A stretch of DNA of 64,000 nucleotides from Naegleria gruberi (taxonomy: Eukaryota). Of this stretch, positions 2,819-57,280 are shown one piece after another. The number at the start of each line of letters is the position of its first letter. The first letter of the stretch is position 1. The stretch lies in the NCBI GenBank assembly GCA_000004985.1, contig GG738851.1; one strand, written 5' to 3'. A program made the translations under genes and the position numbers. The notes beneath the pieces were generated by a model, which saw nothing but the letters and a program-made list of their open reading frames with translations, searched no databases and was not told the DNA's origin.

Positions 2819-5467
2819 ATGTATGATCATTGGGTAGGTATACCTATTCTACTACTCTCTTCACTATCATTACGCTAGAAATACGACAGAGATCAAGTCC
2901 TCCGAATAACTCTCAACAATGGCTTTTATCTACAATATGCTGATGATAAATTTAAAAAAGATAAAGATCTTGTGTTACAGGTAATTTCTCGGTACGGAAG
3001 GGGACTCGAATTCGTAGACGAATCCCTGAAAAAAGATAAGGAGGTTGTTCTTGCAGCTGTCAAACACGATGGCTTTGCACTTAAATTTGCTCATCATTCA
3101 TTGAAAAAAGATAGAACAATAGTTTGGGAAGCAATTTCACAAAATGGAAATGCTCTTCGTTTCGCTGATGCAATATTTCAAAATGATAGAGAAATTGTGT
3201 TGCGATCGGTGAGAATCGCTGGCGGAGCATTACAACATGCCAGTGATTTGTTAAAAGTGGATCATCTAGTTGTGTTTGAAGCAGTCAAACAGAGTGGACA
3301 TGCTATTCAATTTGCGCACTCATCATTTAAGAAAGATAGAGAGCTGGCATTGAAATGTTGTAAAATAGGAGATAATTCATTTGAATATGTAGATGGATCA
3401 TTCAAGAAAGAAAGAGAGTTCGTATTGGAATCTGTTAAAAGTTTTGGAACAGCTCTTTTGCATGTACATGAACCATTTAAAAAAGATAAGGAAATAGTTT
3501 TTGAAGCTATCAAACAAAGTCCAAGTGCATTCTTCAGTGCTGATGATTCATTTAGGAAGAAAGACAGAGAATTTATATTGAAAGTCGCCAAGTGTGATGA
3601 GGGTGCAATTTATTGGACAGATTATTCTATCCAATCAGAGACATTATTTGCATTTATCTACTCGTTTAGCTTGAAAGCTGATCAAAAAGAATGGATAAAG
3701 GGTCTAAATTCAACGCTATACGAAAATATCGAGAAAGCCAAGGCTGAATCAATTCAGACATGTTTATCTAGAGATGTTATTGGAATGTATTCGAACAAGT
3801 TTTCTGAGGAAGCTTATTTATTTTGTTGCTTGGCTTTACCAGACACTTATCCTAAACCTGTAGGAAATATATTCAATTTCAATCAATCGTATTCTAGTCA
3901 ATTTGTGGAAAAACTGATTATTGTACAAATTTTGAAGAGTATTAGTTCATTGGATTCAACTTGCAGCGCATCTGTCAGTAAGACAATAGATTATTACTTG
4001 TTTTTATTCAAGTTAGACAGATTTTTAGACGAATCTAATGTTAAATCAACCAATTATTCCAAGCTTGGATCTGTTGTTATGGAAATTTCATCAAAGTTTG
4101 AAACATCATATTACTCAAAAACTGATATTGGAATTGCATTATTATTTTTCAAAGATTGGATCAGCAGATTTAAACATTTCGATGATCACCGAGAGACATT
4201 AGCTCAATACAAGCAAGTTGGAGGTGATTTCTCAAAAATTATGCGAGTTATCACGCAATTTCATTACTATTCAAATAATGATTATGATGTTGTTTCAGTA
4301 CTAGGATATGGAGGCGAAGGAGCTGCTTTTAAAGCATTTAGTAAGAAATTGAATGAATTGGTGGCCATCAAAATCAAATTTGAGAAGGAAGATGAAAAAA
4401 GCAGCGAGGAAAGAATTCAATTTATCAGGAGAAATGATATTGAAGGTAAAATCAAATGCCACGATTGTAATTTGATTGATGGTTACATGTATTCTATCAT
4501 GGAATTGGGAGAAGAGACATTATCTGATTATATTGATAGAAATAGAACTTATTATCAAAATAAGCAATATTCGAAAGAGCATTTTATTGAGATTCTAATA
4601 ATATTTAACAAGATTTTACAAGCAGTCAAATCAATTCATGACCATAATATTTCACATAGAGATTTGGATCCTAAAAATGTAGTCAAAGTGAAAGATCGTT
4701 ACAAAATTATTGACTTTGATATTGCAAAGGTCATCAAAACAGGTAATTCTATCACCCTAACTGTTGGAAAATTTGCATACATGTCACCAGAAGTGTCACA
4801 CGACAATTACAGCGAGGAAATGCTCAATAACGAAGACAAGCTTTCAAATAATATTGGAAATGTCACAACATCATGTGATATCTTCTCATTGGGATGTATT
4901 TTATTGAAACTCTTAACAAACTGTAGTTTGAGATTGGATAGAGAATTCGTAACTGTTATCAACAACTTTGAGAAATATGATGGAAATTATCAATACTTTA
5001 CAGATAATGGATTTTATTTCTATTCAATATTGATTGATTTGTTAAAGGAAAAGAAATTACATCACGCCATTCAACAGACAGTGAACCAGTTCGTGGATCC
5101 TGAATGGGAAGTTAATGAAATACTTATCAAGTGTTTAATAACAATGATTCAAAAGGATCCAACTCAAAGATTAGATTGTTTCATACATAGTAATGTCCTT
5201 ACAAAGGTAATCGATTTTTTAAAAGGTGAAAACAACATGACACTTAACCAAATTCTCAAAGATATGGAAAATTATAAGGAAATTAATGAATTGAAGGATA
5301 TTCCACAAATTATTGAAGAAAATGAGCAGCTTAAGAATGAAAATGTTGAGCTGAAGAGAATGATCGAAAATCTAGAAGAGAAAAGTCGAAAGGATAAGGA
5401 AGAAAATCAAATGCTAATGAAGAAGTTAGAGGAAATGGAGAAACGAACCAAAGAGCTTGAAAAATAA
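2819..5467 (+). CDS. DUF4116-like tandem-repeat protein fused to a protein-kinase-like domain and a C-terminal coiled coil. Model: join(2819..2833, 2879..5467).
   Basis: The long ORF has no in-frame ATG. Its frame stays open back to 2879 and still encodes the repeat there (YADDKFKKDKDLVLQ). Upstream lie ATG TAT GAT CAT TGG (MYDHW), then GTAGGT...CGCTAG; a 45-nt GT..AG intron (2834..2878) joins these in phase 0. About nine repeats of ~37 aa follow (K-DREVVLeAVKqnG-AL-fA---LKKDR). Kinase motifs are VAIKIKF, HRDLDPKNV and DFD (instead of DFG), plus an odd Gly loop LGYGGEGAAF. The C-terminus is a K/E-rich coiled coil. Confidence 0.55.
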
Positions 5468-12578: not shown

Positions 12579-14045
12579 TTATCGAGAATTGATTTTTTCA
12601 ATCATTTGTATGAGGAAAGTACGATCCTTCAAGAGGTAATTGTACTCGTCTCTTGTAATAAAATTATAGGTCATTAATGCTTCCATGATAATTTCTCTAT
12701 CGTGCTTAAAGTAAGTTCCACATTCAAAGAATGCAGATCCATTAAGTTTCACTGCTTCCAGTACGAATTCTCTGTCCTGTTTCACAATTTCTGGGCATTC
12801 CAATATAGCAAGAGTATTGTGTTTGAAATATGCCAAAATGACATCTCTGTCCTGCTTTAACTCGTCAGCAGCATATTCAGCAACTCTTGGATTAATATCG
12901 ATTGCCTCCAAAATAAACTCTTTTTCTTTGATCAAATCTGTTGAATAGGTTATAGCTCTGGGATTGATTTTGATAGCTTTCTTGATGATTTCAACATCTG
13001 ATTTTAAACTTGGAAGAGCAGCATAACCCAGAGCATACCCATTAGAGGAAACTGCCAAGTAAACCAAATCTCTATCTCTCCTTAAACTTTCGTGAGCATA
13101 TTTGAAAGCGCATCCCTCTTGAGTAATAGCTGCTGTCACAATTTCCACATCCTGTTTGAGTGATTCGTCAGCATCCTTTAGTGCATCTCCACATTGTTTT
13201 ACTGCCTCTAATACTATCTCTTTGTCCTTTCTAAATTGATGAGGAACTCTACCAAGCACTTTTCCATTTCTTTTAACGGCTTGAAGAGCAAATTCTCTGT
13301 CGTTCTGTATTTCTGGACTTGCCAGTAGAAATCCTGCAACATAATTAGGTCCAATTGATTCCAAGAGTATTTCCCTATCTTGTTTAACATATTTTGCGGC
13401 AAATTGAATAGAAGTTCCATCAAGTTTGACAGCATTTAACAAAATTTCTCTATCTTTTTTCATATTTTCTGGAATGGTCATTATTGTAATAATTGGGTTC
13501 TTTTTGACAGCCTCAAAAACTACCTCTCTATCATTTTTCAATTCCTTGCTGCAATGTGAAAAAGCACTCATCGAATTTCTGATAGCTTTCAACACTAATT
13601 CTCTATCCGACCTAAGATCTTCATTTGCAAACTCCAAGGCATCTCCACATCCATTCTCAATAGCCAATCGTACCAATTCTTGATCGTTTCGCAACTCGTT
13701 TACCATCAGTTCAAAAGCTCTCCCATTCACTCTCAAAGCCTTCATCACAAATTCTCGATTTTTCTTCAATTCATTACTTGCATCATAAATTCTACAAAAA
13801 TCCAATCGGATAGCCTTCAGCATAATCTCTTCATTGTTTCTCATACACTCAGAGATGAATAAATTATCCAACTTCATCCTCTCCAATGCCAGTCCATACA
13901 TGATCGGATCAAATTCGAATAGTTGGGCAATTTCGGAAAAGAAGGGAATTGCCTTGAGAGCCTTTCTTTCCAGGTCATATTTTTCTCGTAAAATTCGTGA
14001 TGAACAGTTTGTATCTAAAAGCAAAATTGTGCAATGTGTTGTCAT
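12579..14045 (-). CDS. DUF4116-like tandem-repeat protein (paralog of the repeat region in 2819..5467)
   Basis: 488-aa ORF from the ATG at 14045. It is built almost entirely of the same ~37-aa repeat (KNDREVVFEAVKKNP.., KQDREILLESI.., RKDKEIVLEAVKQCGDAL..). Confidence 0.6.
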   Translation of the reverse strand: MTTHCTILLLDTNCSSRILREKYDLERKALKAIPFFSEIAQLFEFDPIMYGLALERMKLDNLFISECMRNNEEIMLKAIRLDFCRIYDASNELKKNREFVMKALRVNGRAFELMVNELRNDQELVRLAIENGCGDALEFANEDLRSDRELVLKAIRNSMSAFSHCSKELKNDREVVFEAVKKNPIITIMTIPENMKKDREILLNAVKLDGTSIQFAAKYVKQDREILLESIGPNYVAGFLLASPEIQNDREFALQAVKRNGKVLGRVPHQFRKDKEIVLEAVKQCGDALKDADESLKQDVEIVTAAITQEGCAFKYAHESLRRDRDLVYLAVSSNGYALGYAALPSLKSDVEIIKKAIKINPRAITYSTDLIKEKEFILEAIDINPRVAEYAADELKQDRDVILAYFKHNTLAILECPEIVKQDREFVLEAVKLNGSAFFECGTYFKHDREIIMEALMTYNFITRDEYNYLLKDRTFLIQMIEKINSR

Positions 14046-14142
14046 TTTTTTTGTAAAGTTTTTAACAAAGAAGTTCTTGTTTCAATGTTAGTTCCTCAAT
14101 TTAGTTCTTATACGTATTCATATCTTTTTAAGATGATCGTAA

Positions 14143-14231
14143 GGCGGCTTAGCACAGTGGCAGTGCATCAGTCTTGTAGGCAGAAATGCTGAGATAACTG
14201 AGGGTCGAGGGTTCAATTCCCTCAGTCGCCT
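14143..14231 (+). tRNA. tRNA-Thr(UGU) with a 17-nt intron
   Basis: Cloverleaf read by hand: acceptor GGCGGCT/AGTCGCC (one G-U), D-arm GCAC-AGTGGCA-GTGC, anticodon stem TCAGT/ACTGA, loop CTTGTA|intron GGCAGAAATGCTGAGAT|A, T-arm GAGGG-TTCAATT-CCCTC, discriminator T. A T4 run (CCTTTTGTC) follows as a Pol III terminator. Anticodon TGT. Confidence 0.7.
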
Positions 14232-14629
14232 TTTGTCATTTTCATATTTTTTTACATTCTGTTTACTAGTATGGCAATCAGTAACCAACATATTCTTTAT
14301 TATCATAATAACTTCGGCTGATCATTTTCAAGCCTTCCTTGGTTGTATCCAGACAAGGCTTTCATAAAACTACCAAAAAAAATACATCATCACTATCTGT
14401 GGTTGAAAACACACTCATTGTAGTAGGCTTTTTGATTGTTTCGCAAACATTTCAAAGCCTTTTTTTGCTAATAGTAGTATTGTGTGATCACCATCATCAT
14501 TGTCTGCTCTGATTGTATAAACAACAAAAAGAACAATAACATCACAACGGAGGAATTTTTGATAGTACATATATAAATATTTAATATTTAATTATTATTA
14601 TTTAATAATCGAGAGAGAATATATTCAAA

Positions 14630-24844: not shown

Positions 24845-26515
24845 TTATAATGAATAGTATTTTCCCGAATTGTTTACACTATTGTCACCCTCTTCAGAAG
24901 TTGATGAGATTAGTGAAACACTCTTATCATCTACATTGCCCTTCTTCTGGAATCTCTTGACAAAAGTGAAATCTTCCTTATTGAATTCATAGTATAAAAC
25001 AGATGAAGAAAATACAAACGCCATAACAATGGCACATGATCTCAGTAAGGAATAGAGAGTTATTTCATCTGTTAGTTTGGCAGCCAATAAATTTAAATCA
25101 ATTGCTGTGAACCCTTGTAAAATTGCAAGGCAAAAGGCACCCAATTTGAAATACTAATTTAACATACAGTAAAAATCATAAAAATGAAGAAAATGGAAAC
25201 TTACCTTTGTGCTAAATGCTGAGACATCTGAAATTTTCTTTAGAGTAAAATAGATTATCAGTAGGAATACAAAGCAAGCGGCATGAATAAGGAATTCAAT
25301 GGCCCAAGAAACTGAAATCCACCCAATAACCATGTAAAGTGGACCCACAGTAAATTGGAATATTGCACTAATCAGAACACAACAAGTAATTAAAATAATA
25401 AATATTGAAAATGTTAGACAATAGGAGAGGATGGAGTTTGGTTTCTTTTGTGTCTTGACATACTTCATCAGGCCATACAAGTTAACTAGAATTGGAATAA
25501 GTGCAAAATAATTCACAAATTCTGAAATGGTAGCCAAATATCTAAATGCTGATATCAAATTCAGCAATTCGAAAACTAGAGATAATACTCTCAAAACAGA
25601 AGCCAAAAATATGGCAAGGGATGGTAGTAATTTCATCAAAGAGTATTGATTTCTATCCCTATCCTTTTGAAGTAAATTGATAAGCTTTGGAATGAGGGAA
25701 GAAAAAAGAATGAAAAGAGATAGAGCTGAAAATGAAATTATCCCAGTGTATGCAGTGAAATCTATAATAAATTCGGTAAGAGCTCTCTTTTTGCACCCCA
25801 TACCAAACATGTTAGAATTCACACAATAGCACAAGTATGAATAATCTAGATATGGTGAAATGAATGGCACTCCAAAGTTACTATGTCCACAAAATCTAGC
25901 ATCTCTCGGAAAATCCTCCAACATGGATCGTATTGTAGCATTTGAATTTTTACAATTATTATTTTCAATTCTCTCATTAAATGATTTGTATCCTTTTGCA
26001 TTACTACAATATTTACAATAATTAATAAAATCAAATATCTCACTTCGATTGTATGCATAATTTTCACACAAATCAATGCATGTCAAATTATTTCTCTCTT
26101 CCACAATTTTAAACGATTGACAAACATCCAATAAACTCAAATCACTAATTTCAGGGAAGGCAATGGTTGGATAATCCTCCACATGCCAAAACTCTTCCAC
26201 AGGAAGAGGAACTGTGTTATCGGGCAGAATGACCCTTTCACATTCTACAGATGGCATCTTTGGATTTTTAAATATTTCATATTTTGATCCTAACTTTCCA
26301 ATCAAGGAAGCACTCGATGATTTACATTTCCATTGTCCCAACATTTCGGAAGATGATGATTCTACCACTCCACAATATATTATTTCCATCATGAATATTA
26401 TAATTAATAATAAATTAAAATTATTCCGCCGACACTTCCAATTCATCGAATTAATCGAATGTGATGAGGAATGGAGAAAAACACTCAGTGAAGGGTTGAC
26501 TAGAGGTTTTGCCAT
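24845..26515 (-). CDS. Cys-rich ectodomain + 7TM receptor-like protein (frizzled/smoothened-like architecture). Model: complement(join(24845..25153, 25205..26515)).
   Basis: N-terminal signal, then a roughly 230-aa region with about 20 Cys, then six to seven hydrophobic helices. A 51-nt intron (25154..25204; donor AAG|GTAAGT, acceptor TTAAATTAG|) joins in phase 0 to the listed ORF 24845..25144, continuing ...STK|YFKLGAFCLAILQGF.... Confidence 0.5.
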
Positions 26516-27161
26516 TTTTTTTGCTTACGATGAATTTTCGCGCTCATTTTAAGGTTCATAATTACAATTTTAAAAAAAACTAAAATAATGATTTTTAAAT
26601 GCAGCAACAGAACACATAGTTATTTATTACGGCCCAAGTGTTGTTCCATAAAGTTGGCTTCAGTGTTTGGAAGTGATCTTGTTGGATTGCCAGGAATGAT
26701 GGATTTCTATGTAGTCCAAAAGTAGTTCTTTGATTGGCAAAGAATGGCAGATGGTTGACTTTTTGGAATAACAGCTGGTAAGGAACCAAAAGAGGAATGA
26801 AGAAGGAATTTATGAAGAAAGAGAGAAGGAATTGAAACGGAAGAGGAAGTACCTTACGAAAGAATGTTTTGATCTTTTGGCAGAAACTGACAAAATGGCA
26901 AAGCTCAAAACCACAAGCAAGACAAATTATTAATATGATAATGTTAAGGTTAGAATTGGTATAATCGAAAGGATGTTATTTTAACCGAATAGTGACTAAA
27001 CAATGAACTGTTTGTTTTATACAATTTTTTGATAAGTTATTTTTCAAAGATGAATATTTGTAAATACTCAATTTGAAAAAGTAAGAGTCAATCTTGTCAT
27101 ATCTTTGATTCTAAACTTGATAAATTGAACACATTAAGGCGTTGTTGAACCTTAATGTGAA

Positions 27162-27242
27162 GCAGGGGTTCCCGAGTGGTCAAAGGGGGTAGACTCAAGT
27201 TCTACTGCGCAAGCTTCGTGGGTTCAAATCCCACCTTCTGCA
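27162..27242 (+). tRNA. tRNA-Leu(CAA), class II with long variable arm, no intron
   Basis: Acceptor GCAGGGG/CTTCTGC (two G-U), D-loop GAGTGGTCAAA, anticodon stem GTAGA/TCTAC, loop CTCAAGT, long variable arm, T-arm GTGGG-TTCAAAT-CCCAC, discriminator A. A T4 run (GTTTTGTC) follows. Confidence 0.7.
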
Positions 27243-27776
27243 GTTTTGTCTCCTAAAATTTTTCCTTGAGAGGTTTACCGAACTTGTTAATTGCATTACC
27301 TTCCAGATGATGTCTAGTATATATTATGTAAATATTGTGCCTTCATTATATGTATTCACAAAGACAATCGATTATGATGACATGCATATCAAAGTGTTGA
27401 AAATAGTTTAGCTCTAAAAACAAATTACTGATGAAAATTAAATTTATGAATGTGAGCTGAGTGAATGAAATTGTCTCTTGTTCAATTAAAAAAAAAGAAA
27501 CCTTCATGGCGCCGAACAGCAAAAGAGCTACCATTGCTATTCCTATCACTCAGTATTTGCAGTACTGTAAATCCACAGCAGTTTTGAAATTCCTTAAATA
27601 TCAAGAACACATTGAATGATATCAGATTGAAAAAATTCATTTTCAATACAGTCTAGTATATCAAAATGTTTTAATTGATTGAACTGCGAATGAATAGTGT
27701 CGATATGAAAACATCTAGATTTCCACATCTTAGTGCTTTTTGAAAAGCGGTGTATGGTTTGAATACTTACATCGTC

Positions 27777-27827
27777 GTTAACTAGATTTCTGATAGAGTT
27801 GAACAGTGAATGATTAAGAAAGTAATT
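27777..27827 (+). promoter_or_regulatory. Conserved 51-bp element immediately upstream of 5S copy 1 (shared with copy 3)
   Basis: GTTAACTAGATTTCTGATAGAGTTGAACAGTGAATGATTAAGAAAGTAATT matches 52652..52702 (reverse complement) with only a few mismatches. Flanks beyond this are unrelated, and copy 2 lacks it. Confidence 0.4.
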
Positions 27828-27945
27828 GGCTACGGCCATATCACGATGAATGCACCTCATCCCGTCCGATTTGAGAAGTTAAGCATCGTCGAGCCACATC
27901 AATACTGAGGTTGGAGACAACTTGGGAACCTGTGGTGCAGTAGTC
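27828..27945 (+). rRNA. 5S rRNA gene, copy 1
   Basis: GGCTACGGCCATATCACG...CATCCCGTCCGATTTGAGAAGTTAAGC...GGTTGGAGACAACTTGGGAACCTGTGGTGCAGTAGTC. The core CATCCCGTCCGATyTGnGAAGTTAAGC and the helix I pairing GGCTAC/GTAGTC match eukaryotic 5S. It differs from copies 2 and 3 at GCAGTAG versus GCTGTAG. The first T5 run lies about 25 nt past the 3' end rather than immediately after it. Confidence 0.85.
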
Positions 27946-28113
27946 ATGGCTTATTTAGATTTCTTTTTCTTTTAAATCCAAGAATGATTTAATTTCTTCC
28001 ACTTGTTACCGTTCCACCATGCATAAAGAGGTTTCACACCCTTTTTTACATGTCTATGAGCCTTCCTATCAGCCCATCCCTTTTCTCTTCTTCAAAGAAC
28101 TTGTTATTTGGTC

Positions 28114-28323
28114 TCAATCATCAACTTCAAATGGACCCAATATAAATGGTGATAATTTACAATAATCACCTCTCGAAGCAGAGAAAACTTCAATTGTTTC
28201 ATAACCTTCCTTAGTCACCTTTTTACTTCTATATGAGTGTTTAGCACATTCAACTTTTCCTCTCATTTTTTTATATTGAATTGAATCAATCCATTTAATC
28301 AGTGTTATGGTCAATGGAGACAA
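28114..28323 (-). CDS. Small hypothetical protein (69 aa)
   Basis: ORF MSPLTITLIKWIDSIQYKKMRGKVECAKHSYRSKKVTKEGYETIEVFSASRGDYCKLSPFILGPFEVDD with no recognisable family. It lies 170 bp downstream of 5S copy 1. Confidence 0.25.
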   Translation of the reverse strand: MSPLTITLIKWIDSIQYKKMRGKVECAKHSYRSKKVTKEGYETIEVFSASRGDYCKLSPFILGPFEVDD

Positions 28324-28743
28324 CTCTACTCAAGCATTAATATATTCTAATCAAAACATGTCATCCAATGCCAATATCAACCACACTGCAGAGCAAACTT
28401 CCACACCCAGTGTTACTCTTGCAGAGAACGCTTTGTTCCAAAAATAAAATTATAATTTCTGCTATTATTGGAATTTTATTAGACATTAATATTTATAAAT
28501 CAACTTTTATTCCTTTATGTTATCAAGATTTATTCAAAATCATAAGGTATTCCATTATACATTTTCAAGTACTTGGAATCACTTCTTTTTACAAATCCAA
28601 AACAAAATCATTTATTGTTAAAATATCATTTCGTCTTCACACGTATCAAGAACTCCACAAGATCATTGCAAGCTGTCTTAATATTATTTGCTATTGTCAT
28701 ACTTTTTGTTTCTTCGTTCTGTTCACCAAAGTCTCCAGGAGCC

Positions 28744-29652
28744 TCATTCAACAATTCGATTGACTTGTTTGGCCAAAATATGACCATCATCATCATATTC
28801 GCTCTTAACATAATTAAATATCGATTCAGCATCGAAAGCTACTACACATATTTCCTTTGGCTCCATCATCCCAAATACAAAGTCACTACTAACTCCACAA
28901 TGGTAATTGAGCTTATTCCATTCCATTTTTCTAATATGACAGTAAAAAGATGTACAAAATCTATCTTTCACTCCTTGTCCTGATTTACCAACATATAATA
29001 TTGGTAACCTCTTTGAAACAATAAAATAGATAGAATTTGGTTTGTAAATGCCGACTGAGTGTTTTTTGAAAAAGTTAGAGCTCACAATTTCGGCAAGTAC
29101 TTGTGAAGGCCATGTGGGGTATGGTTTTTCGTCAATAATGGTATCATCCGAGATAGTACATTCTTTATATTTGCCAGAATTGCCTACAAAGAATGGAATA
29201 TTACGGTATTCGCTCTTCTTCCAATCGCCATCTTTCCAGTCATAATACTTGTCTATTTGATTGAAAAACAATTCCTCTAAACTATACGGAAATTTGGCAC
29301 CAGGCAAGACATTGTTTGGGAATCTATTCCTCAATTCTTTCTTCAACTCTACCAATGATTTCTTTTTAAACAACTCACTTAATTGTTTATCTTGTTCGAT
29401 GATTTTAGGTATACATGGTTTGACATGAGCCTTATTGATCAATATAGGTGAAGAAGTAATTTGAAAGGGTTCATTCTTTACGAATAGTGAATACATGTTA
29501 CCTTTGTCCACAACTCCTGATACGTTTCCATCATTATCCAGAAACAGTTTAACATCGATACTACCTTGCTTGAGCTTGTTTGTAATCTCCTCGTATGAAA
29601 TGTCAAAGAATTGAACCTCAATTCTTAGATTTGAATTGCTTTTGTTCATCAT
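28744..29652 (-). CDS. Orphan protein with a C-terminal GIY-YIG-like nuclease motif
   Basis: 302 aa from the ATG at 29652. The C-terminal segment SIYFIVSKRLPILYVGKSGQGVKDRFCTSFYCHIRK fits the GIY-(10-11)-YIG-...-R-...-H spacing of GIY-YIG modules. The rest is unrelated to known families. Its paralog is 31423..31890. Confidence 0.45.
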   Translation of the reverse strand: MMNKSNSNLRIEVQFFDISYEEITNKLKQGSIDVKLFLDNDGNVSGVVDKGNMYSLFVKNEPFQITSSPILINKAHVKPCIPKIIEQDKQLSELFKKKSLVELKKELRNRFPNNVLPGAKFPYSLEELFFNQIDKYYDWKDGDWKKSEYRNIPFFVGNSGKYKECTISDDTIIDEKPYPTWPSQVLAEIVSSNFFKKHSVGIYKPNSIYFIVSKRLPILYVGKSGQGVKDRFCTSFYCHIRKMEWNKLNYHCGVSSDFVFGMMEPKEICVVAFDAESIFNYVKSEYDDDGHILAKQVNRIVE

Positions 29653-29901
29653 TTTCGTTTATATTTGTTACATTTATTTCTTTATAATTAAGATTTCTAT
29701 TTACAAACTGTATTATCTATTTCTCATTGGTTGCTTGACTCCTCTTTCCAAACCCTGTCTGAGTTCCTCCATTAATGTAAGAATGTTTTGCCCAATGTGA
29801 TTGGGGCACCTAGTGATTGTATAATTTTAATGTTCCGAGTCATACAAGGCAGAACAAGGAGGCCTTTAAACAGCAGTTTATTGTTCTGATGATTTGCAAT
29901 T

Positions 29902-31422: not shown

Positions 31423-31890
31423 TCATTTCTTTATATTGTTAAGATTTAATTTTACAATTCTTTGGCGAATATGTTTAATATCAACGGAGTGTTTTTTGCA
31501 AAACTTTGAGTCCAATATAGTAGCCAACTCTAATGATGACCAAGTAACAACTGGATCCTTGTTCTTAATTATAGAGTCAGATATGGTGCATTCTTCATAC
31601 TTTAAAGATCTGTTTGCCAAGAAGAATGGAATGTGACAGTATTCATTATTTTTCCAATCCCCACCTTTCCAATTGTTAAGGTTGTCAATCTTATTGAAAT
31701 AAGACTCCTCTCCGTTTCCAGATAAACTTGGTAATATATTCGTTGGGTATCTTTTTCTAGTTTGTTCCTTCATTTTAACAAACAATTTTTCATCGAACAA
31801 TTTCTTCAATTCTTTATCTTGTACAACGAACAAAGGCAGGTATTTGATGGGACCTTGATTGAGTGAAGTTGATTTGTCCTCTTGATTCAA
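31423..31890 (-). pseudogene. 5'- and 3'-truncated duplicate of the 28744..29652 gene (lacks the N-terminal ~55 aa, any ATG, and the GIY-YIG-like C-terminus)
   Basis: The translated region HVFIKSELNQEDKSTSLNQGPIKYLPLFVVQDKELKKLFDEK...KRYPTNILPS...GGDWKNNEYCHIPFF...YEECTISDS...KKHSV aligns along its length to residues ~56-215 of the intact copy. The listed start is a TTG and the frame has no ATG. The 5' flank motif CATTTCTTTATAATTA(TTA)AGATTTCTATTTACAA is shared (29670..29705 versus 31975..32010). Confidence 0.45.
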
Positions 31891-32175
31891 TTCACTCTTT
31901 ATAAAAACATGTCATGCTGAGTTGAAATTTTACTCGCATCTTCTCCTGGTATCATTTCATTGACATTTTAATGTTTCATTTCTTTATAATTATTAAGATT
32001 TCTATTTACAATCAATAGATTCGTTGCATTCACTGTTCAAACATTCAAAGACTGTAGCGGGATAGTCGCCATATTCCTGGCAGGCTTCTGGTCTTAATTG
32101 TAAAATGAAATAACAAATATTTATTCTGATGTTTAATTAATTTTTAAAAGCAAAACTGATTCAAAAATTTAGACT

Positions 32176-32586: not shown

Positions 32587-33328
32587 TTTTTGTTTTTTGA
32601 TTGTGTTTGAGAAGTGAAACATGTTTCAACAGTATTTAAATGTTTGAAAAGAATAGTTTGATTAGTATATTGATTTTTATGATTTTCCATAAAGAGAGTA
32701 GCCACAGATTTTGGACATTGTACATTTGGTCTTTGTTAATCGGTGCGGATAATTGAACAAGAACAGAATGAAAGAACTTCAATGGTTGGATTGTGCTCAA
32801 AGATGTGGAATATCTTGGAATGAAAAAAGTTCCAATATTTAAAGAACGAAAGGACTCTGTAAACTGTTGGTGGACTTTTTGAATTAATCTGATACATCGT
32901 ACTTTTTTTATTCTTGTGCTAGTAGTTTCAAGTTGTCCAATGAAGAGTGGGAATCCTCTCTTTAACTTTCGTATATTTTGAAAATGAGATAAACAAGAGG
33001 TGCTTACCACTCTATACCAAGTTATTGTTAGATGAATTTGCACTCGAGTCAAATTTTTGACACTATTGCCAATAATTGAGTTTTGATTTTTTCACCTTAG
33101 GAGTAATGATATCTTAGCTACCTCTCATTTAATTTTAAAGATTTCATCTCTAAAAACCACAGAGAAAATAATAAAAGATTGGACTCTTTCATTTTTTTTT
33201 ACAAAAAACAAGGTAATATACAAGTTATGAGATAGGTTTTGGATATAATAGTATATATTTCTTTGCAAAGAAATTCAATAAACCTTACCAAGTATGTGAG
33301 AACACAAATTAAGGAACAAAGATAAAAA

Positions 33329-33446
33329 GACTACAGCACCACAGGTTCCCAAGTTGTCTCCAACCTCAGTACTGATGTGGCTCGACGATGCTTAACTTCT
33401 CAAATCGGACGGGATGAGGTGCATTCATCGTGATATGGCCATAGCC
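33329..33446 (-). rRNA. 5S rRNA gene, copy 2 (inverted relative to copy 1)
   Basis: Reverse complement matches copy 1 along the full 118 nt apart from GGCTATGG (versus GGCTACGG) and GCTGTAGTC (versus GCAGTAGTC). It is immediately followed on its own strand by TTTTTATC, a Pol III terminator. Confidence 0.85.
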
Positions 33447-35985: not shown

Positions 35986-36069
35986 TCCGATGAGACGGAA
36001 TCGAACCGCCGACCACAGGATAACAGTTTCAGCTACAGTCCCATGCTCTACCAGCTGAGCTATCATCGG
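35986..36069 (-). tRNA. tRNA-Tyr(GUA) with an 11-nt intron
   Basis: Reverse complement reads CCGATGA-TA-GCTC-AGCTGGTA-GAGC-A-TGGGA-CTGTAG|CTGAAACTGTT|A-TCCTG-TGGTC-GGCGG-TTCGATT-CCGTC-TCATCGG-A. The acceptor stem is perfect, the anticodon is GTA, and the intron sits at the canonical 37/38 position. A T4 run follows on the gene strand. Confidence 0.8.
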
Positions 36070-37439: not shown

Positions 37440-38815
37440 ATGAGCAGCAGCAACAAGTTCTTCCGTGTGTTGCATCAATCAAAGAAGAGCAAAGCACGTG
37501 TTGGTCAAATCATTACACAGCACGGAATTATCGAAACTCCAAACTTTGTACCAGTTGGAACGAATGGAACACTCAAAGGAATTGATAATCACTCACTTTC
37601 ATCATTGGATGTTCAGTTAATGTTTTCCAATACCTATCACTTGTTGATTCATCCGGGAGTTGAGGCAATTGAACAAGCAGGAGGATTACACAAGTATGTC
37701 TCTTGATTTTTATGTTAAACATATTCACATTCATATTCACATCCACATGAAAATATTAAATATTGAATGTGATGATGATTGAATATTTCAGATTTATTTC
37801 AAGGAAACATCCAATTATTACTGATTCGGGAGGTTTTCAAGTTTTTTCACTTCAATCAACACCAACAGAGGAAGGAGTTTTTGAAGGAGAATCACCGAGG
37901 AAATTGATTGAATTGAAAGGACAATCGAAGAATAAGGCACATTCAGAAAGTTTAGTTGAGAGAGTTTCTGAGGATGGTGTGACTTTTAGATCGTATAGGG
38001 ATGGTAAATTACTTCAGCTCACTCCTGAAACATCTGTCACTGCTCAACATAAATTTGGATCTGATATTATAATTCCATTTGATGAGCTGTTACCTGAACA
38101 TGTACCAATGACTGTTATTGAAGAATCTCTGGAAAGAACTCATAGATGGGAATTACGTTCATTGAAATGTCATTTGGAATTATCAAAACAATGTAACAAA
38201 CATCAACATATGTATTGTGTTTTACATGGTGGAACTAATTTGGATTTGAGAAAGAAATCAATGGATACTCTGCTGGATCCTTCATGTTTCCAATTTAGAG
38301 ATACTGAAGATGGTTTACCAAATGGATTTGAAGGAATTGCTATTGGAGGAAGTTTAGGATCGAATAGAGAGGAAATGTTGGATGTGTTAAAATTTACCTA
38401 CAATTATTTGGAAGAGAAGATTCCACAAGATTGTTTCGTACCTAATCATATCTTAGGCATTGGTGATATTGCCTCAATGAAATCATTTATTGAACTTGGA
38501 TTTGATACATGTGATTCGGCCTATCCAACTAGATTGGCAAGACATGGTAATTTAATTGTTGGTGCTGCCTCTGGAAATCCAACAACATTATCTATTAAGA
38601 GCTCAGCCTCTCTCGGAATGCACGATAGACCAATTGATACAACTTGTGATTGTCCAGTTTGTTCTGGGCCAGATGCCTACTCTGTGGCCTACTTGCACCA
38701 TCTATTCAAGATGAGTGAACCAACTTATATAACCCTCTCAACCATTCACAACGTTAGACAAATGATGATTTGGATGAAGACGATAAGAGAGAGAATAAAG
38801 AATGATGAATTGTAA
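37440..38815 (+). CDS. QTRT1: Queuine tRNA-ribosyltransferase, catalytic subunit. Model: join(37440..37693, 37792..38815).
   Basis: Exon 1 reads ...ARVGQIITQHGIIETPNFVPVGTNGTLKG...MFSNTYHLLIHPGVEAIEQAGGLHK. A 98-nt GTATGT..TTTCAG intron follows in phase 2. Exon 2 resumes FISRKHPIITDSGGFQVFSL, carrying the nucleophile Asp motif TDSGGFQ. The second catalytic Asp is in GFDTCDSAYPTR, and the zinc site is CDCPVCSG...LHHLF. Confidence 0.8.
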
Positions 38816-45857: not shown

Positions 45858-46576
45858 TTTTCGATATTTATTTGATAGAAAAGAAACTAAAAAAACGTTA
45901 TATTCGATTAGTAGACAATCTCTAGTTTGAATTTATGTTGTTTTTTTCATTGTTTCCATTCAACTTTGCTCTTAAATAATTAAATTCTTTACTAGTATTG
46001 ACAAGAATTTTTTATTTTTAGCTGCACGGTTCAATGTTAAACGTTTTTCCTTTTTACTGAAATGTTGAATGGATTCTAGAAGGCAACGGTCAAGTGATGA
46101 CGAAAGCAATTATCATCGTACCTCCAACGTTAATTTGTTAATTCTGAAAAACTGTTCTTGCAATGTTCTATTTACAAGATTTTCAATGATTTTCTGAAAG
46201 TGTTGTTGATCCGAATGTGATTTAGAATGCAGTAATTGACAAGTTATTTGAAAACATGGTTAGATAATTGATCTTTCAGGTTCCTTTTCAATTTGAATGT
46301 GTGTTTCTAAAAGGTGTGAGTGGGCCCCAGCGTTTTACTTTTATTAGAAACCAAATAAGATTCAAAAACTATTGACGTAATTTACCTTTTTATTTAAATT
46401 GGACAAGAACATGGAAATTCTAACTCCTTTTGAATAATAGAAGATCTATAGGAATAGAATTTCCTCAAACCTAAATTAACCTTTTTTGGAAATTGGTCCT
46501 ATTGAGATATTTGATCAACTCACTTTTATTGGCCCTTGCATTGCTTTTCATCAAACCAAACAAGAAAAAAAGAATA

Positions 46577-47845
46577 ATGCGATCCAGAGTTAAATTTTGC
46601 CTATCATTGTTTGTTATTTTGATGTTTTTGTTTGTTGTCTATTGTCAAGTAGACGAAAGTCCAACACCAGAGTTTTCATTAGAAACACCAACACCTGAAG
46701 AATCCTCAGCTCCTGAGCAACCTACTCCAGAACAATCAGTTAGTCAACCAACACCTGAAGAGTCAAGTCCAAATGAGCAGCCTACACCTGAAGTATCAGA
46801 TACACCAATTCCAGAAGAATCTACTAGTCAACCAACACCTGAAACCTCAAGTGAACAACCTGAGCCTGAAGCTTCTACTGAGCAACCAACACCTGAATCA
46901 TCAACAGAAACTCCAATTCCAGAAGAATCTTCAAGTCAACCAACACCTGAAACTTCAAGTGAGCAACCAACACCAGAAGAATCAACTAGTCAACCAACAC
47001 CAGAAGTATCTGAAACTCCATTTCCAGAAGAATCTACTAGTCAACCTACTCCTGAGACATCTAGTGAACAGCCAACACCTGAATCATCAACTGAACAACC
47101 AACACCAGAAACATCTGATGTGCCAACACCTGAAACATCAAGTGAACAACCTGTTCCAGAAGAATCTACTAGTCAACCAACACCTGAAACTTCAAGTGAA
47201 CAACCAACACCAGAAGTGTCAGATCCACCAGTTCCAGAAGATTCTAATAGTCAACCAACACCTGAAACATCTGTAGATCAACCAACTCCAGAAGTATCTG
47301 AAACTCCAATTCCAGAGGAATCAATTTCACCTGAAACATCTGAAACTCCACAACCAGAAAGCTCAACTGAAACACCAACACCTGAAGAATCAATTGCTCC
47401 TGAACCTTCTGAACCAACAACTCCAGAAACATCAAGTGAACAACCAACTCCAGAGGAATCTTCCACCACTCAACCAGAAACATCTTCAACAACTAGTCCA
47501 GAAACTTCTCAAGAAACCACTCAACCAGAATCATCCACTGCATCAGAAAATCCAACCACTCCAGAATCATCAAGTCAATCCACTGATTCCACTGACTCAA
47601 CTGATGATACAAGCTCACAAACAGAAGATTTTGAAAATACCCTCTTCTCAGCAGAAGAAGATGAAGACGATTCAATTATCGGAGCTCAAGTATTAAGCAA
47701 TGCACCAAGTTTCAAGATTAGAGTTAAGAATCAAGCAAGATGTAAACGTTCCTTGCAGGGATGTGTTGCCTTGATGAAGAATTGTAAGCAAGAACCTAAA
47801 TTCTTCTTGGATGGAAATGGATGTATTCTATGTGAATGTCATTGA
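46577..47845 (+). CDS. Secreted Pro/Thr/Glu/Ser-rich tandem-repeat (mucin-like) protein with a C-terminal 6-Cys module
   Basis: Signal peptide MRSRVKFCLSLFVILMFLFVVYCQV. About 25 imperfect repeats of ~11-12 aa follow (QPTPE(E/T)S(T/S)S(E/Q)). The C-terminus is CKRSLQGCVALMKNCKQEPKFFLDGNGCILCEC. The antisense and alternate-frame ORFs over this region are repeat artefacts. Confidence 0.6.
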   Translation: MRSRVKFCLSLFVILMFLFVVYCQVDESPTPEFSLETPTPEESSAPEQPTPEQSVSQPTPEESSPNEQPTPEVSDTPIPEESTSQPTPETSSEQPEPEASTEQPTPESSTETPIPEESSSQPTPETSSEQPTPEESTSQPTPEVSETPFPEESTSQPTPETSSEQPTPESSTEQPTPETSDVPTPETSSEQPVPEESTSQPTPETSSEQPTPEVSDPPVPEDSNSQPTPETSVDQPTPEVSETPIPEESISPETSETPQPESSTETPTPEESIAPEPSEPTTPETSSEQPTPEESSTTQPETSSTTSPETSQETTQPESSTASENPTTPESSSQSTDSTDSTDDTSSQTEDFENTLFSAEEDEDDSIIGAQVLSNAPSFKIRVKNQARCKRSLQGCVALMKNCKQEPKFFLDGNGCILCECH

Positions 47846-52347: not shown

Positions 52348-52533
52348 CGGAGGAAGAAGAATTGAAGTTGGAGAGGTGTCCTCTATAAATCTTTTTTTAC
52401 TGTTGTTTTTGAATTGTTATGATTGTTCAATTAAGGAAATTTACATTCCCGCCAAATATTAAATTCTCATTGTAAAGATCTTGAATCGAACAAAAAATTT
52501 GAGTTAAAGTGATATTTGTTGAAGAAAACAAAA

Positions 52534-52651
52534 GACTACAGCACCACAGGTTCCCAAGTTGTCTCCAACCTCAGTACTGATGTGGCTCGACGATGCTTAA
52601 CTTCTCAAATCGGACGGGATGAGGTGCATTCATCGTGATATGGCCGTAGCC
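52534..52651 (-). rRNA. 5S rRNA gene, copy 3
   Basis: Identical in length (118 nt) and nearly identical in sequence to copy 2. It has GGCTACGG at the 5' end like copy 1, and a Pol III terminator TTTTGTTTTC directly after the 3' end. It shares the 51-bp upstream element with copy 1. Confidence 0.85.
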
Positions 52652-52702
52652 ATTCACTTTCTTAATCATTCACTCTTCAACTCTATCAGAAATCTAGTTA
52701 AC
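52652..52702 (-). promoter_or_regulatory. Conserved 51-bp 5S upstream element (copy 3)
   Basis: Reverse complement GTTAACTAGATTTCTGATAGAGTTGAAGAGTGAATGATTAAGAAAGTGAAT matches 27777..27827. Confidence 0.4.
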
Positions 52703-52742
52703 AATTTACAAAACACAAACTTTCTAATAATCTACTATTTAT

Positions 52743-53288
52743 TTAAACAAAGAATGAAACAATAATCATCAATGCAATCAAAATGCTTGATCCAATCATC
52801 TTTTCAGCACCAGAACAAACATATTTAGTTCCAGAAAGACAAACTCCATTATATGCAGAATAATCAACAGTTTGTTTAACACTTGAACAGGCACTATCAT
52901 AATAAACAGTCAAATATCTACAGGCAGTACTCTTATAAGAACCAGCACCTGGAATAACAACACAAGTATCCAATGGGAAGATTTGTGAGACAACTAAATT
53001 GGAAGTAGCACAAGTAGTGTCAGAATAAATTGATAATTGTAAAGTATTCTTGGAACCAATGGAAGGAACAGTTGAAGTACATTGACTAGTGGTATAGAGT
53101 GAGGTGGTGTTACTACCAGTACAGGTTGGGTTGGAAGTACAGTTAGAAGTTGGAGTGTAGAGATCCAACATTGGGAGAGAGCTTGAACACTTGGAGTCAG
53201 TGAAGAGGGAAGATCTGATGTATTGACCACTGACTGATGTGATGGCAATGAGAGCAAAGAGGACAATGGAGAGAATGATAGTTTTCAT
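52743..53288 (-). CDS. Small secreted Cys-rich protein with GPI-anchor-like C-terminus (ponticulin-like), paralog A
   Basis: 181 aa. Signal peptide ending ..SVSGQY, eight Cys conserved with paralog B, S/T-rich, and a C-terminal hydrophobic tail (ILIALMIIVSFFV) preceded by small residues (SGAE). Confidence 0.55.
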   Translation of the reverse strand: MKTIILSIVLFALIAITSVSGQYIRSSLFTDSKCSSSLPMLDLYTPTSNCTSNPTCTGSNTTSLYTTSQCTSTVPSIGSKNTLQLSIYSDTTCATSNLVVSQIFPLDTCVVIPGAGSYKSTACRYLTVYYDSACSSVKQTVDYSAYNGVCLSGTKYVCSGAEKMIGSSILIALMIIVSFFV

Positions 53289-53582
53289 TTTCTTGAGATT
53301 GTTTGTTTTTTTGAGTGAAGAAATGAGTTGAAAGTTTTGTTGAATTTATTCGAAAGTGCAAGTTCATTAATTTCATGTGGCTTCACTAATGTGACAAGTG
53401 GTTACAACGAGTGTAAGATGCAATTATTGAAATAAAATGTAAAAGGAAACTTTTCCAACTCAATTCCTACATGAAATGTGACAACTCGAAGAAATTTAGG
53501 TTTCGAATATTTCCTTCCTTACATTTCGTTCAGTGAAAAAGGTTGTAAATTCATTCAATACACAAATTACAATATCTCATCC

Positions 53583-55128: not shown

Positions 55129-57280
55129 TTATCGATGTTTGAGTTTGTGTTTCAATTGTCTCTTGTCTGAGAGTGCCTTCTTCCACTTCTTTTCGTTTTG
55201 ACCCATGGTATTCTTGTGTCTGACGTTTCTGGACATCTTCAACATCATGTATGGCTTGTTCTTCTTCTTTTGCTTTTGAGTTTCTCCAGGTTGTTCCCAC
55301 TTTCTTCTGTTGAATTTCTTCTTTTCTGGTTCAAATTCATTGTCTGAATCGTCACCCTTAGAAATGTCACCAATATCATCTTCGTCAACATTTTCATTGC
55401 TAAAGATTGGGGTTTCTCTCTTTCTCTTCTTACCCATAAGCTTTTCCATTTCCTTGCTCTTTTTGAGTTTCTTAATCAACTCAAAGTCTTCTTGTGTAAG
55501 AATTCTGGTTTGATCAATTCTTGGGCCCTTTGGTTCCTCTGAAGCTTGTTCACCATCTTCAATGACTTCTTCTTCTTCACTGTCCAATTCGAAAACATCT
55601 TCCAAGTTCAACAATTCACCACCTTCCTCGTTATCAGATCCCTCAGAATCATCAGAGTCATCCATAGCAATATTGACATCATCTTCACCGTCGCTTGGAA
55701 CATCAATCCATTCACCTTCTTCATCAGAATCTTCACCATCAACAGCCATGAGATCCTTTTCAGATTCCTTTCTCTTATTGTATTCTTCCAATAATTCAAT
55801 GCCATCAACACCTTCAGCAACTCTTTGAGTACCAAATTCTGGAATGACTGCTTCAGGATCGTGATCTTTACCTCTGTCTTTCTTGTTCAACATCTTTGGA
55901 GAAAGTTCTCTGAAGAGTGTTATAATACCTCTAGCAGCATGGAAAACTTGTTTATCCTTATGTTTAGAATATTGAGATAAATCTCTCAAGAGGGTCTTGG
56001 TCATAACTCTTGGTTGTCTTGAACAAATAACTCTAATTGTATTCAAACCAGCTGCAATAACTTCTGGTTTGGAATGGTCATTAGCAAAATTGTTAGCAAT
56101 AGTCATGACGACTGGATGAATAACATCAGGAGGAACAAAATCGTGAACTGATTGGGCAGTAATGGCAAGAATCTTGGTAACATCTAAAAAATTGAAATAT
56201 ATCAGAAATTAAAATGTCACAAAACTTACTGGCTTGGGCAGGGAGTAAATATTTTTGAATGAAAGGATAAAAATTGAGAAGAACTAATTGATTTGAGGAA
56301 ACACATCTTGAAATAACGTCCAACATTAAAATTCTTACTTCAAATTTGTCATTTGAACTCTTCAATTTAGCAAAGAGTTTTTCAGAGAAACCTTGTGGAT
56401 CATTCAACATGTTGAGAACGTTCAATGATTCAATTTCCATACCCTTTTCCTTATGTTTATCCTTCTTTTTAAGTTGTTTGAGAGCTTTCTTAAATTTGTT
56501 TTCCTTTTTCTTTGTCTTTTTAGAGTGAATATTGTTAACTTTAAACTTTAAATCTCTAATCAAGTGACCAAGATCTCTATCATCTGATTTTTGTTTTGTT
56601 CCGTCTTCATCTTCTTCAGCTTCATCAACTAATTCACCCAAGAAGAATTTAAGTGCAATAACAACAAGAGCAGTATCTTCAGCAAAACATGATTGGGAAA
56701 TAACATTGACACATCTATCATCATTCCAAATACCTCTTCTATAAAGTGTAATTAAAAGTTGCAAACTCTTCTTTGCAGCAATACGGAATGAATCTTTCAA
56801 CATGGAAAAGACAAAGTTTTGCAATGATCTATTTACATTAGGATTCTTCTTCTTCATATTGATTTTAGTAATATCGGAGAGAATGTGTTTATAAACCATA
56901 CTTCTAAGAGTCTTATCATGTACTCGGAAAAGTTTAAATAATACTGGTATTAAAGTTTTAGAGTCAAGAATGTCGTTATTACGGAAAGCAATGAGTGTGA
57001 TAGCAAGTTGTCTTCTCAATTTTGGTTCTAATTCTAATTGTTTTGTTTCCAACAAATCCAAAATCATTGGTGCTGCAGTTTTGGTTTCTGCTTTATAAAC
57101 TTTGCAAGCAACACTCAAAAATTGCAACAATTTGACAAAATATTTAGCATCATCGGCTGGTCTCAATTTTGCAACTTCGGTTTGATTTTCCAAGTGTTTC
57201 AATTGAAGGAGGAAATCATCTTTATAAGCCTTTGGATCTTTAAAAACTTGTTCTTGAAGATGAAGGAGATCGATACTCAT
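55129..57280 (-). CDS. SDA1: SDA1 (ribosome-biogenesis / nucleolar protein). Model: complement(join(55129..56183, 56230..57280)).
   Basis: The N-terminus MSIDLLHLQEQVFKDPKAYKDDFLLQLKHLEN matches the SDA1 start (LQNLIKRDPE.YKEEFLQQ). A 46-nt intron (A|GTAAGT...TTTTTTAG|) joins the two listed ORFs in phase 1 to give 701 aa. The C-terminal half has the characteristic D/E-rich acidic block and K-rich tail. Confidence 0.7.

Follow-up and report, generated by a model that had tools for sequence, protein, structure and literature searches.

The window, that is, the whole 64-kb stretch of DNA analysed, carries three full-length matches to the Rfam 5S rRNA model RF00001, each covering model positions 1-120 of 120 and each above the gathering threshold of 38 bits over the full model: copy 1 at 27828-27946 on the plus strand (95.0 bits), copy 2 at 33328-33446 on the minus strand (104.1 bits), and copy 3 at 52533-52651 on the minus strand (105.4 bits). 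The genes themselves were placed at 27828-27945 (+), 33329-33446 (-), and 52534-52651 (-), respectively. They differ at three positions and at no others: position 6 is C, T, and C, position 75 is A, G, and G, and position 112 is A, T, and T in copies 1, 2, and 3, respectively. Copy 1, with A75 and A112, is a variant whose match has a mismatch flagged in the NC line; copy 2 has U6, which gives a U.G wobble in helix I, and a unique upstream flank; and copy 3 has the canonical sequence and is identical to a locus from a metagenome (L019). A box A consensus at +50 and a box C at +80 (16 of 18 positions) were found by sequence match in all three copies. Helix I and the AGUA of loop E are intact in copies 2 and 3 and both are altered in copy 1, which also has the weakest predicted fold, with -33.9 kcal/mol in comparison to -37.8 and -40.3 kcal/mol for the other two. 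The genes do not form a tandem array, being 5.4 and 19 kb apart and on different strands. Judged from these sequence features, the three appear to be dispersed nuclear 5S genes of the ordinary RNA polymerase III type 1, in which the internal control region (box A at +50, box C at +80) would serve as promoter, and copies 2 and 3 would be canonical members of the family.

The DNA around the three genes is gene-dense, with a GC content of 33% and long uninterrupted ORFs, and matches with 100% identity to the window were found in one ENA metagenome only (ERZ929261). Four long ATG ORFs of the window were looked up as exact protein matches, and none was on record. The Pfam domains detected in the window are those of typical eukaryotic genes and include SDA1, PIF1 helicase, kelch, F-box, and DUF4116 repeat proteins. 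The SDA1 gene (55129-57280, -) is divided into two ORFs in different frames, and the same division is found in the independent contig L001 described below, which speaks for a small intron rather than a sequencing error. DUF4116 repeat proteins are encoded at 2972-5467 (+) and 12579-14045 (-), of which one has a protein kinase domain fused to it and the other contains 14 repeats; since a DUF4116 protein is also encoded in a contig of a sister species (L022, 2237-3568), the family appears expanded in the lineage. For the queuine tRNA-ribosyltransferase (TGT) gene at 37763-38815 (+), the best named eukaryotic match was Willaertia magna with 67%, and the other named matches were all to bacterial Tgt proteins of Chlamydiota or Babeliales (45-49%); the gene may be of bacterial (chlamydial) type and may have entered heteroloboseans by an old horizontal transfer. 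The match to Willaertia, together with the similarity of the antisense 5S translation to a Naegleria lovaniensis protein described below, indicates that the host is a Naegleria-like heterolobosean. Between 5S copies 1 and 2 there is a local gene duplication, represented by paralogous ORFs of 302 and 155 amino acids at 28744-29722 and 31423-32027, which both carry the motif ...NWK.GDWK..EY..IPFF... and whose 70-nt upstream regions are also alike (29653-29722 against 31955-32027, 71-74%). The ORF at 46493-47845 (+) contains a long array of 27-nt (9-amino acid) repeats rich in Pro, Thr, Glu, and Ser, of the type E-x-S-S-E-Q-P-T-P, and its product is probably a mucin-like surface or secreted protein. 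The window also has three tRNA genes, at least the first of which has an intron. Two of them, at 14142-14232 (+) and 35986-36069 (-), were both assigned as Thr(UGU) by ARAGORN, even though their sequences are quite different and 91 and 84 nt long, respectively; Rfam places a 19-nt insertion after the anticodon loop of the former, and the anticodon assignment of the two may be affected by introns.

The three 5S copies can be further distinguished by what follows the gene. After the common end ...GTAGTC, copy 2 runs directly into a T5 at +1 (33324-33328, -) and copy 3 into a T4 at +1 (52530-52533, -), which is followed by G and then by another T4, while copy 1 continues with ATGGCTTATTTAGATTTC, so that its first run of at least four T residues, a T5 and the displaced candidate terminator for pol III, lies at +19 to +23 (27964-27968, +). 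All seven other loci of the lineage (copies 2 and 3 and five loci with T4 to T6) have a T-run of at least 4 nt at +1, copy 1 being the sole exception. The tRNA genes of the window end at T4 within a few nucleotides, and T4 thus appears to be the termination signal of this organism. Because box A and box C are intact in copy 1, this copy could still be transcribed, and it would in that case give an RNA extended by about 20 nt. The preliminary description had reported three scattered 5S genes, T-runs directly behind copies 2 and 3, a displaced T5 behind copy 1, and a 3'-extended transcript from the latter; the genes are borne out by the three full-length RF00001 matches, the placement of the terminators was correct, and the extended transcript agrees with the sequence, in which no run of at least four T is found before +19.

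The substitutions of copy 1 fall at conserved positions of the molecule. Position 75, the G of the loop E AGUA and an upper-case letter in the Rfam consensus, is G in 17 of the 18 complete loci and A only in copy 1, where G75A converts AGUA to AAUA. Position 112 is T in 15 of these 18 loci, and A112 of copy 1 turns the conserved G7.U wobble into a G.A mismatch in helix I, which was flagged by cmscan. Since it is the sole locus with G75A and carries the helix I mismatch in addition, copy 1 looks like a decaying gene and not like a second functional class; we read it as a copy in decay, or at the most as a minor variant, and infer its loss of function from these changes.

A repeat search of the window returned an inverted repeat of 169 nt with 97% complementarity, the arms of which lie at 27777-27945 and 52534-52702 and correspond to positions -51 to +118 of copies 1 and 3. 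Both ends of this block are sharp and the flanks beyond them are unrelated. Inside the block, the gene part differs between copies 1 and 3 at 2 of 118 positions, and the 51-bp part upstream of the gene (27777-27827, +, at copy 1, and 52652-52702, -, at copy 3), hereafter the element, differs at 3 of 51 positions (94% identity). In a three-way alignment with 300-nt flanks, the similarity between copies 1 and 2 was found to be the 119-nt gene with about 5 nt on either side. It had been claimed earlier that 51 bp upstream are common to copies 1 and 3 and missing at copy 2, which is confirmed by these comparisons, and the repeat search arrived at exactly the same coordinates. When the 27-nt and 19-nt halves of the element were searched for in the window with up to three mismatches allowed, only these two sites were found, and none of 100 shuffles gave two matches. 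The Rfam E-value scan of 27600-28100 returned nothing in the element, only the 5S gene and a meaningless 13-bit match to SCARNA7. The surroundings of the element are not the same at the two sites. At copy 3 it begins 40 nt past the stop codon of a 181-amino acid ORF of secreted type (52743-53288, -) and is for this reason likely to be part of the 3' region of that gene, while at copy 1 it is found in 2.2 kb of DNA that lacks long ORFs, with a distance of 585 nt to the tRNA-Leu gene upstream.

The copy-3 locus was also found in an independent metagenome contig from another strain (L001), which is 96-99% identical to the window. The element is joined to the 5S start in this contig and its sequence is identical to that at copy 3. 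As the intergenic DNA around the element is itself 96-98% identical between L001 and the window, the identity of the element is uninformative on selection. The contig departs from the window after nucleotide 28 of the 5S gene: positions 4662-5377 of L001 match 52625-53375 of the window through this nucleotide with one extra A, and are followed by unrelated sequence and then by an inverted paralogue (89.6%) of the 181-amino acid ORF. The break at the 5S gene could be either a strain rearrangement or an assembly chimera. The tail past nucleotide 28 was also considered as a deleted or decayed 5S remnant, and this was rejected (p = 0.21).

To compare the flanks more broadly, we collected 21 5S loci, consisting of the three copies of the window and 18 loci recovered from metagenomes. 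When metagenome contigs were scanned for a 24-mer of the gene that is specific to the lineage, 14 loci were obtained, among which L007 has a 5S gene one base away from that of copy 3 and the others belong to more distant organisms. An indirect route made use of spurious ORFs called antisense over 5S genes, the antisense strand being open for 34 codons. The search of the antisense 5S peptide against 1.84 billion representative proteins gave 59 such ORFs, and a word-indexed protein collection gave 10 antisense-5S ORFs with retrievable contigs, which yielded the loci L019, L020, L021, and L022. The first two come from the same metagenome as L001 and have the 5S type of the window, while the latter two belong to a sister species whose 5S has compensatory helix changes. 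The 5S loci of the same species type that lie outside the window and have a readable upstream flank are thus two, L007 and L020.

Several observations were made on these loci and searches in their own right. In L020 (region 1-1354), the 5S gene is a variant that has gained 2 nt by insertion and carries a substitution in loop C (CCTCACCCCTCGTCC), and it lies in a tight cluster of pol III genes, with same-strand tRNA genes about 100 nt upstream and about 190 nt downstream; the contig has two more tRNAs besides these. The loci L003-L015, on VFQM01 and VFQO01 contigs, represent a second organism with dispersed 5S paralogues. In these paralogues, the helix II/III stem shows compensatory double changes (TTGCATAG..CTGTGCCAA, TTGTGTAG..CTGCACCAA, TTGCGTAG..CTGCGCCAA, and TTGCTGAG..CTCAGCCAA), and the sister-species loci L021 and L022 have compensatory changes relative to the window in helices I, II, and V. 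Spurious antisense-5S ORFs occur in public protein sets (P0175-P0233), and where the antisense 5S peptide matched several stretches of one protein, the protein is a translation of a tandem 5S array from another eukaryote. Part of an annotated protein of Naegleria lovaniensis, the kelch-like 'hypothetical protein' KAG2381711.1, shows 93% identity to the antisense 5S translation, and the N-terminal part of this protein is antisense 5S.

The all-against-all comparison of the 300-nt upstream and downstream flanks of the 21 loci showed that the sole upstream similarity is the one between copy 1 and copy 3, and that there is one downstream similarity, between L004 and L014, which are probably allelic. 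The element is present at two of the seven lineage loci. It is absent upstream of L020, which has the same 5S type, and of L021 and L022 from the sister species, and the upstream 70 nt of copy 2 and L007 showed no significant similarity to it when compared with shuffles (p = 0.2-0.7). Some motifs in common (GTTGAA...GAAT...TTAA and AACTA) had been picked out by eye upstream of L007 and copy 2, and these flanks were considered as a diverged form of the element, a proposal that was dropped in view of the same local alignment p values of 0.2-0.7. Scans of viral contigs with the 5S core and with the element, and of genome contigs with the element, returned zero matches, and no 5S gene was found at the syntenic loci of relatives that were reached via SDA1 (L002) and TGT (L017, and L018 from Willaertia).

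These results bear directly on the proposal that the 51 bp are a functional external control element, i.e., a TFIIIB-binding site, upstream promoter, or regulator that defines a 5S subfamily, is kept by selection, and recurs elsewhere in the genome. The position of the element would suit this role, as it adjoins +1 and spans -51 to -1, a zone with which TFIIIB makes contact in the pol III systems of other eukaryotes such as yeast and vertebrates, and its sequence is the same in the second strain. It may also be said in favor of the proposal that the sample includes only two unbiased loci of the same species, and that a TATA box has been proposed upstream of N. gruberi 5S genes (PMC3369914). 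However, the element has no canonical TATA, it is missing from the intact copy 2 and from L007, L020, L021, and L022, and of the two copies that carry it one is copy 1, which looks defective, while the identity in L001 carries little weight with surroundings that are 96-98% identical. In addition, a chimeric peptide made from the antisense translation of the element and the 5S gene was compared with 5.8 billion proteins and gave no additional element-bearing ORFs, which is a weak negative. We therefore regard a selected control element as unlikely. With respect to a general external promoter of 5S genes, which was one of the two possibilities raised in the preliminary description, most or all 5S paralogues would be expected to have a conserved upstream sequence at the same distance from the gene, and no such sequence was seen among the 21 loci. 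The finding that was named there as speaking against a promoter, other 5S copies that lack the element, is thus the one obtained as far as the data reach (21 loci), and the promoter reading is not upheld. A more specific version combines the two peculiarities of the locus, with the 51 bp as a subfamily-specific upstream control element and copy 1 (A75, A112, 3'-extended) as an expressed 5S variant with a regulation of its own, which might for instance be confined to one stage in the life cycle of the amoeboflagellate. Separately regulated 5S variants have an analogue in the oocyte and somatic 5S classes of Xenopus, but for the present locus we consider such a combination very unlikely. Since the 51 bp coincide with the zone where TFIIIB would sit, some effect on transcription efficiency is nevertheless conceivable by analogy.

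The other possibility raised in the preliminary description was that copies 1 and 3 descend from a larger duplicated unit. The duplication part of this claim is favored by a discrete block and by the only upstream flank match among the 21 loci, but the large size is not, the block reaching only from -51 to +118. Taken together, the data suggest that copies 1 and 3 probably share the block through a small duplication of DNA, that copy 1 is a terminator-less and decaying copy, and that the 51 bp are not a selected promoter. In this proposed course of events, a short stretch of DNA (-51 to +118, 169 bp) would have been copied from one 5S locus to another, most likely from a locus of the copy-3 type to the site of copy 1, and the piece would have consisted of the 5' flank and the gene without the terminator. 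Copy 1 would afterwards have gained its changes at conserved positions (G75A in loop E, G.A in helix I), and the 51 bp would be alike because the duplication is recent and not through selection on a promoter.

Several lines of evidence lead to this reading. The ends of the block can be taken as the ends of the duplication because they are abrupt, the identity being 94-97% within the block and absent beyond it. As non-homologous flanks are out of reach of gene conversion, a unique flank common to two copies should be part of the duplicated segment. The lack of a T-run at copy 1 until +19 is what would result if the duplicated piece had left the terminator behind. No selection is needed to account for the likeness of the element, because 3 of 51 and 2 of 118 differences are within the between-strain intergenic divergence at this locus. 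As for the direction, copy 1 would most economically be the derived copy, because it is without a terminator and carries derived, unfavorable substitutions.

What speaks against a duplication of this kind is that the 3' end of the block falls exactly on the end of the gene, a coincidence that a random DNA duplication leaves unexplained. The same boundary at the last nucleotide of the 5S gene, with the terminator T-run uncopied, would favor a rival in which a 5S transcript extended at its 5' end gave rise to copy 1 by an RNA-mediated route (retroposition) or by some other form of mobility. As transcription of 5S genes by pol III begins at +1, however, the 51-nt leader that retroposition would require is not expected. 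Copy 1 also has no A-rich or U-run tail, none of the LINE-like tail expected of a 5S-derived SINE, and no convincing target-site duplication, the 14-nt near-repeat at 27778-27791 and 27951-27964 (12 of 14 positions) being at the background level. Only two copies of the block were found in the window and the fetched loci, and retroposition is on the whole very improbable. The near-repeat has a second possible meaning, as its downstream arm, which agrees with the start of the element at 12 of 14 positions, follows copy 1 after 5 nt and is 173 nt away from its counterpart, and there are weak element-like fragments at 27678-27695 and 27713-27723; copy 1 and its element could be what is left of a short and decayed tandem array of 5S genes, repeated about every 173 bp. 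The shuffle p values for these matches are marginal (0.03-0.05), equal or better partial matches to the element, including exact 14-mers, are found elsewhere in the window, and Tandem Repeats Finder found nothing in 26500-29000. The fragments are furthermore not collinear with a tandem unit, and the spacer of such an array would be without a terminator, all of which makes a former array very unlikely. The short DNA duplication is accordingly preferred here, with its mechanism and its direction inferred from the boundaries of the block and the state of copy 1.

The arrangement of the 5S genes agrees with that published for N. gruberi, in which 279 putative 5S loci were listed, distributed among many scaffolds and frequently separated by a few kb (PMC3369914, Table S1). 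The large rRNA genes of Naegleria are on a plasmid (PMC12482156). In N. gruberi and in the present window alike, the 5S genes are unlinked to the rDNA plasmid and occur singly or in loose clusters a few kb apart, and dispersed 5S genes are an already known and ordinary feature of Naegleria. The published set was reported to have an internal control region and T-run terminators, together with a TATA box upstream, and TFIIIA was reported not to be detectable (PMC3369914); in contrast to the reported TATA box, the upstream regions of the loci compared here showed no conserved motif. The significance of the present results is thus little beyond annotation: the 5S genes occur one by one at scattered sites whose flanks are unrelated, as published, and the suitable annotation for copy 1 is that of a variant or probable pseudogene. 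They also suggest that new 5S copies can arise through very short DNA duplications that may leave the terminator behind. Recurrence of the 51-bp block throughout the genome would make it a rare case, for a protist, of a long element outside a type-1 pol III gene, but the evidence points the other way.

Among the better known 5S systems, the type-1 promoter of Xenopus consists of an A box at +50-64, an intermediate element, and a C box at +80-97, and it is matched in all three copies by box A at +50 and box C at +80 (16 of 18). Termination at a short T-run is a further feature in common. Upstream elements at the same place, directly ahead of +1, are known from the 5S genes of plants, S. pombe, and Trichomonas, where a TATA-like box of 6-10 bp near -30 precedes essentially all copies. 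The present block differs from them in its length of 51 bp, in its presence at only two of the seven lineage loci, and in having no canonical TATA. The dispersed 5S genes of Neurospora crassa, which together with isolated 5S pseudogenes are said to have been described by Selker, Metzenberg and co-workers in the 1980s, reportedly have in common a short TATA-like box near -29; no such box was seen in the loci here. In other respects there is a likeness to Neurospora, as copy 1 resembles the isolated defective 5S copies known from that organism, and as the 5S genes of this fungus are reported to be scattered and to have unrelated flanks, with defective copies occurring now and then and with 5S genes included in local duplications.
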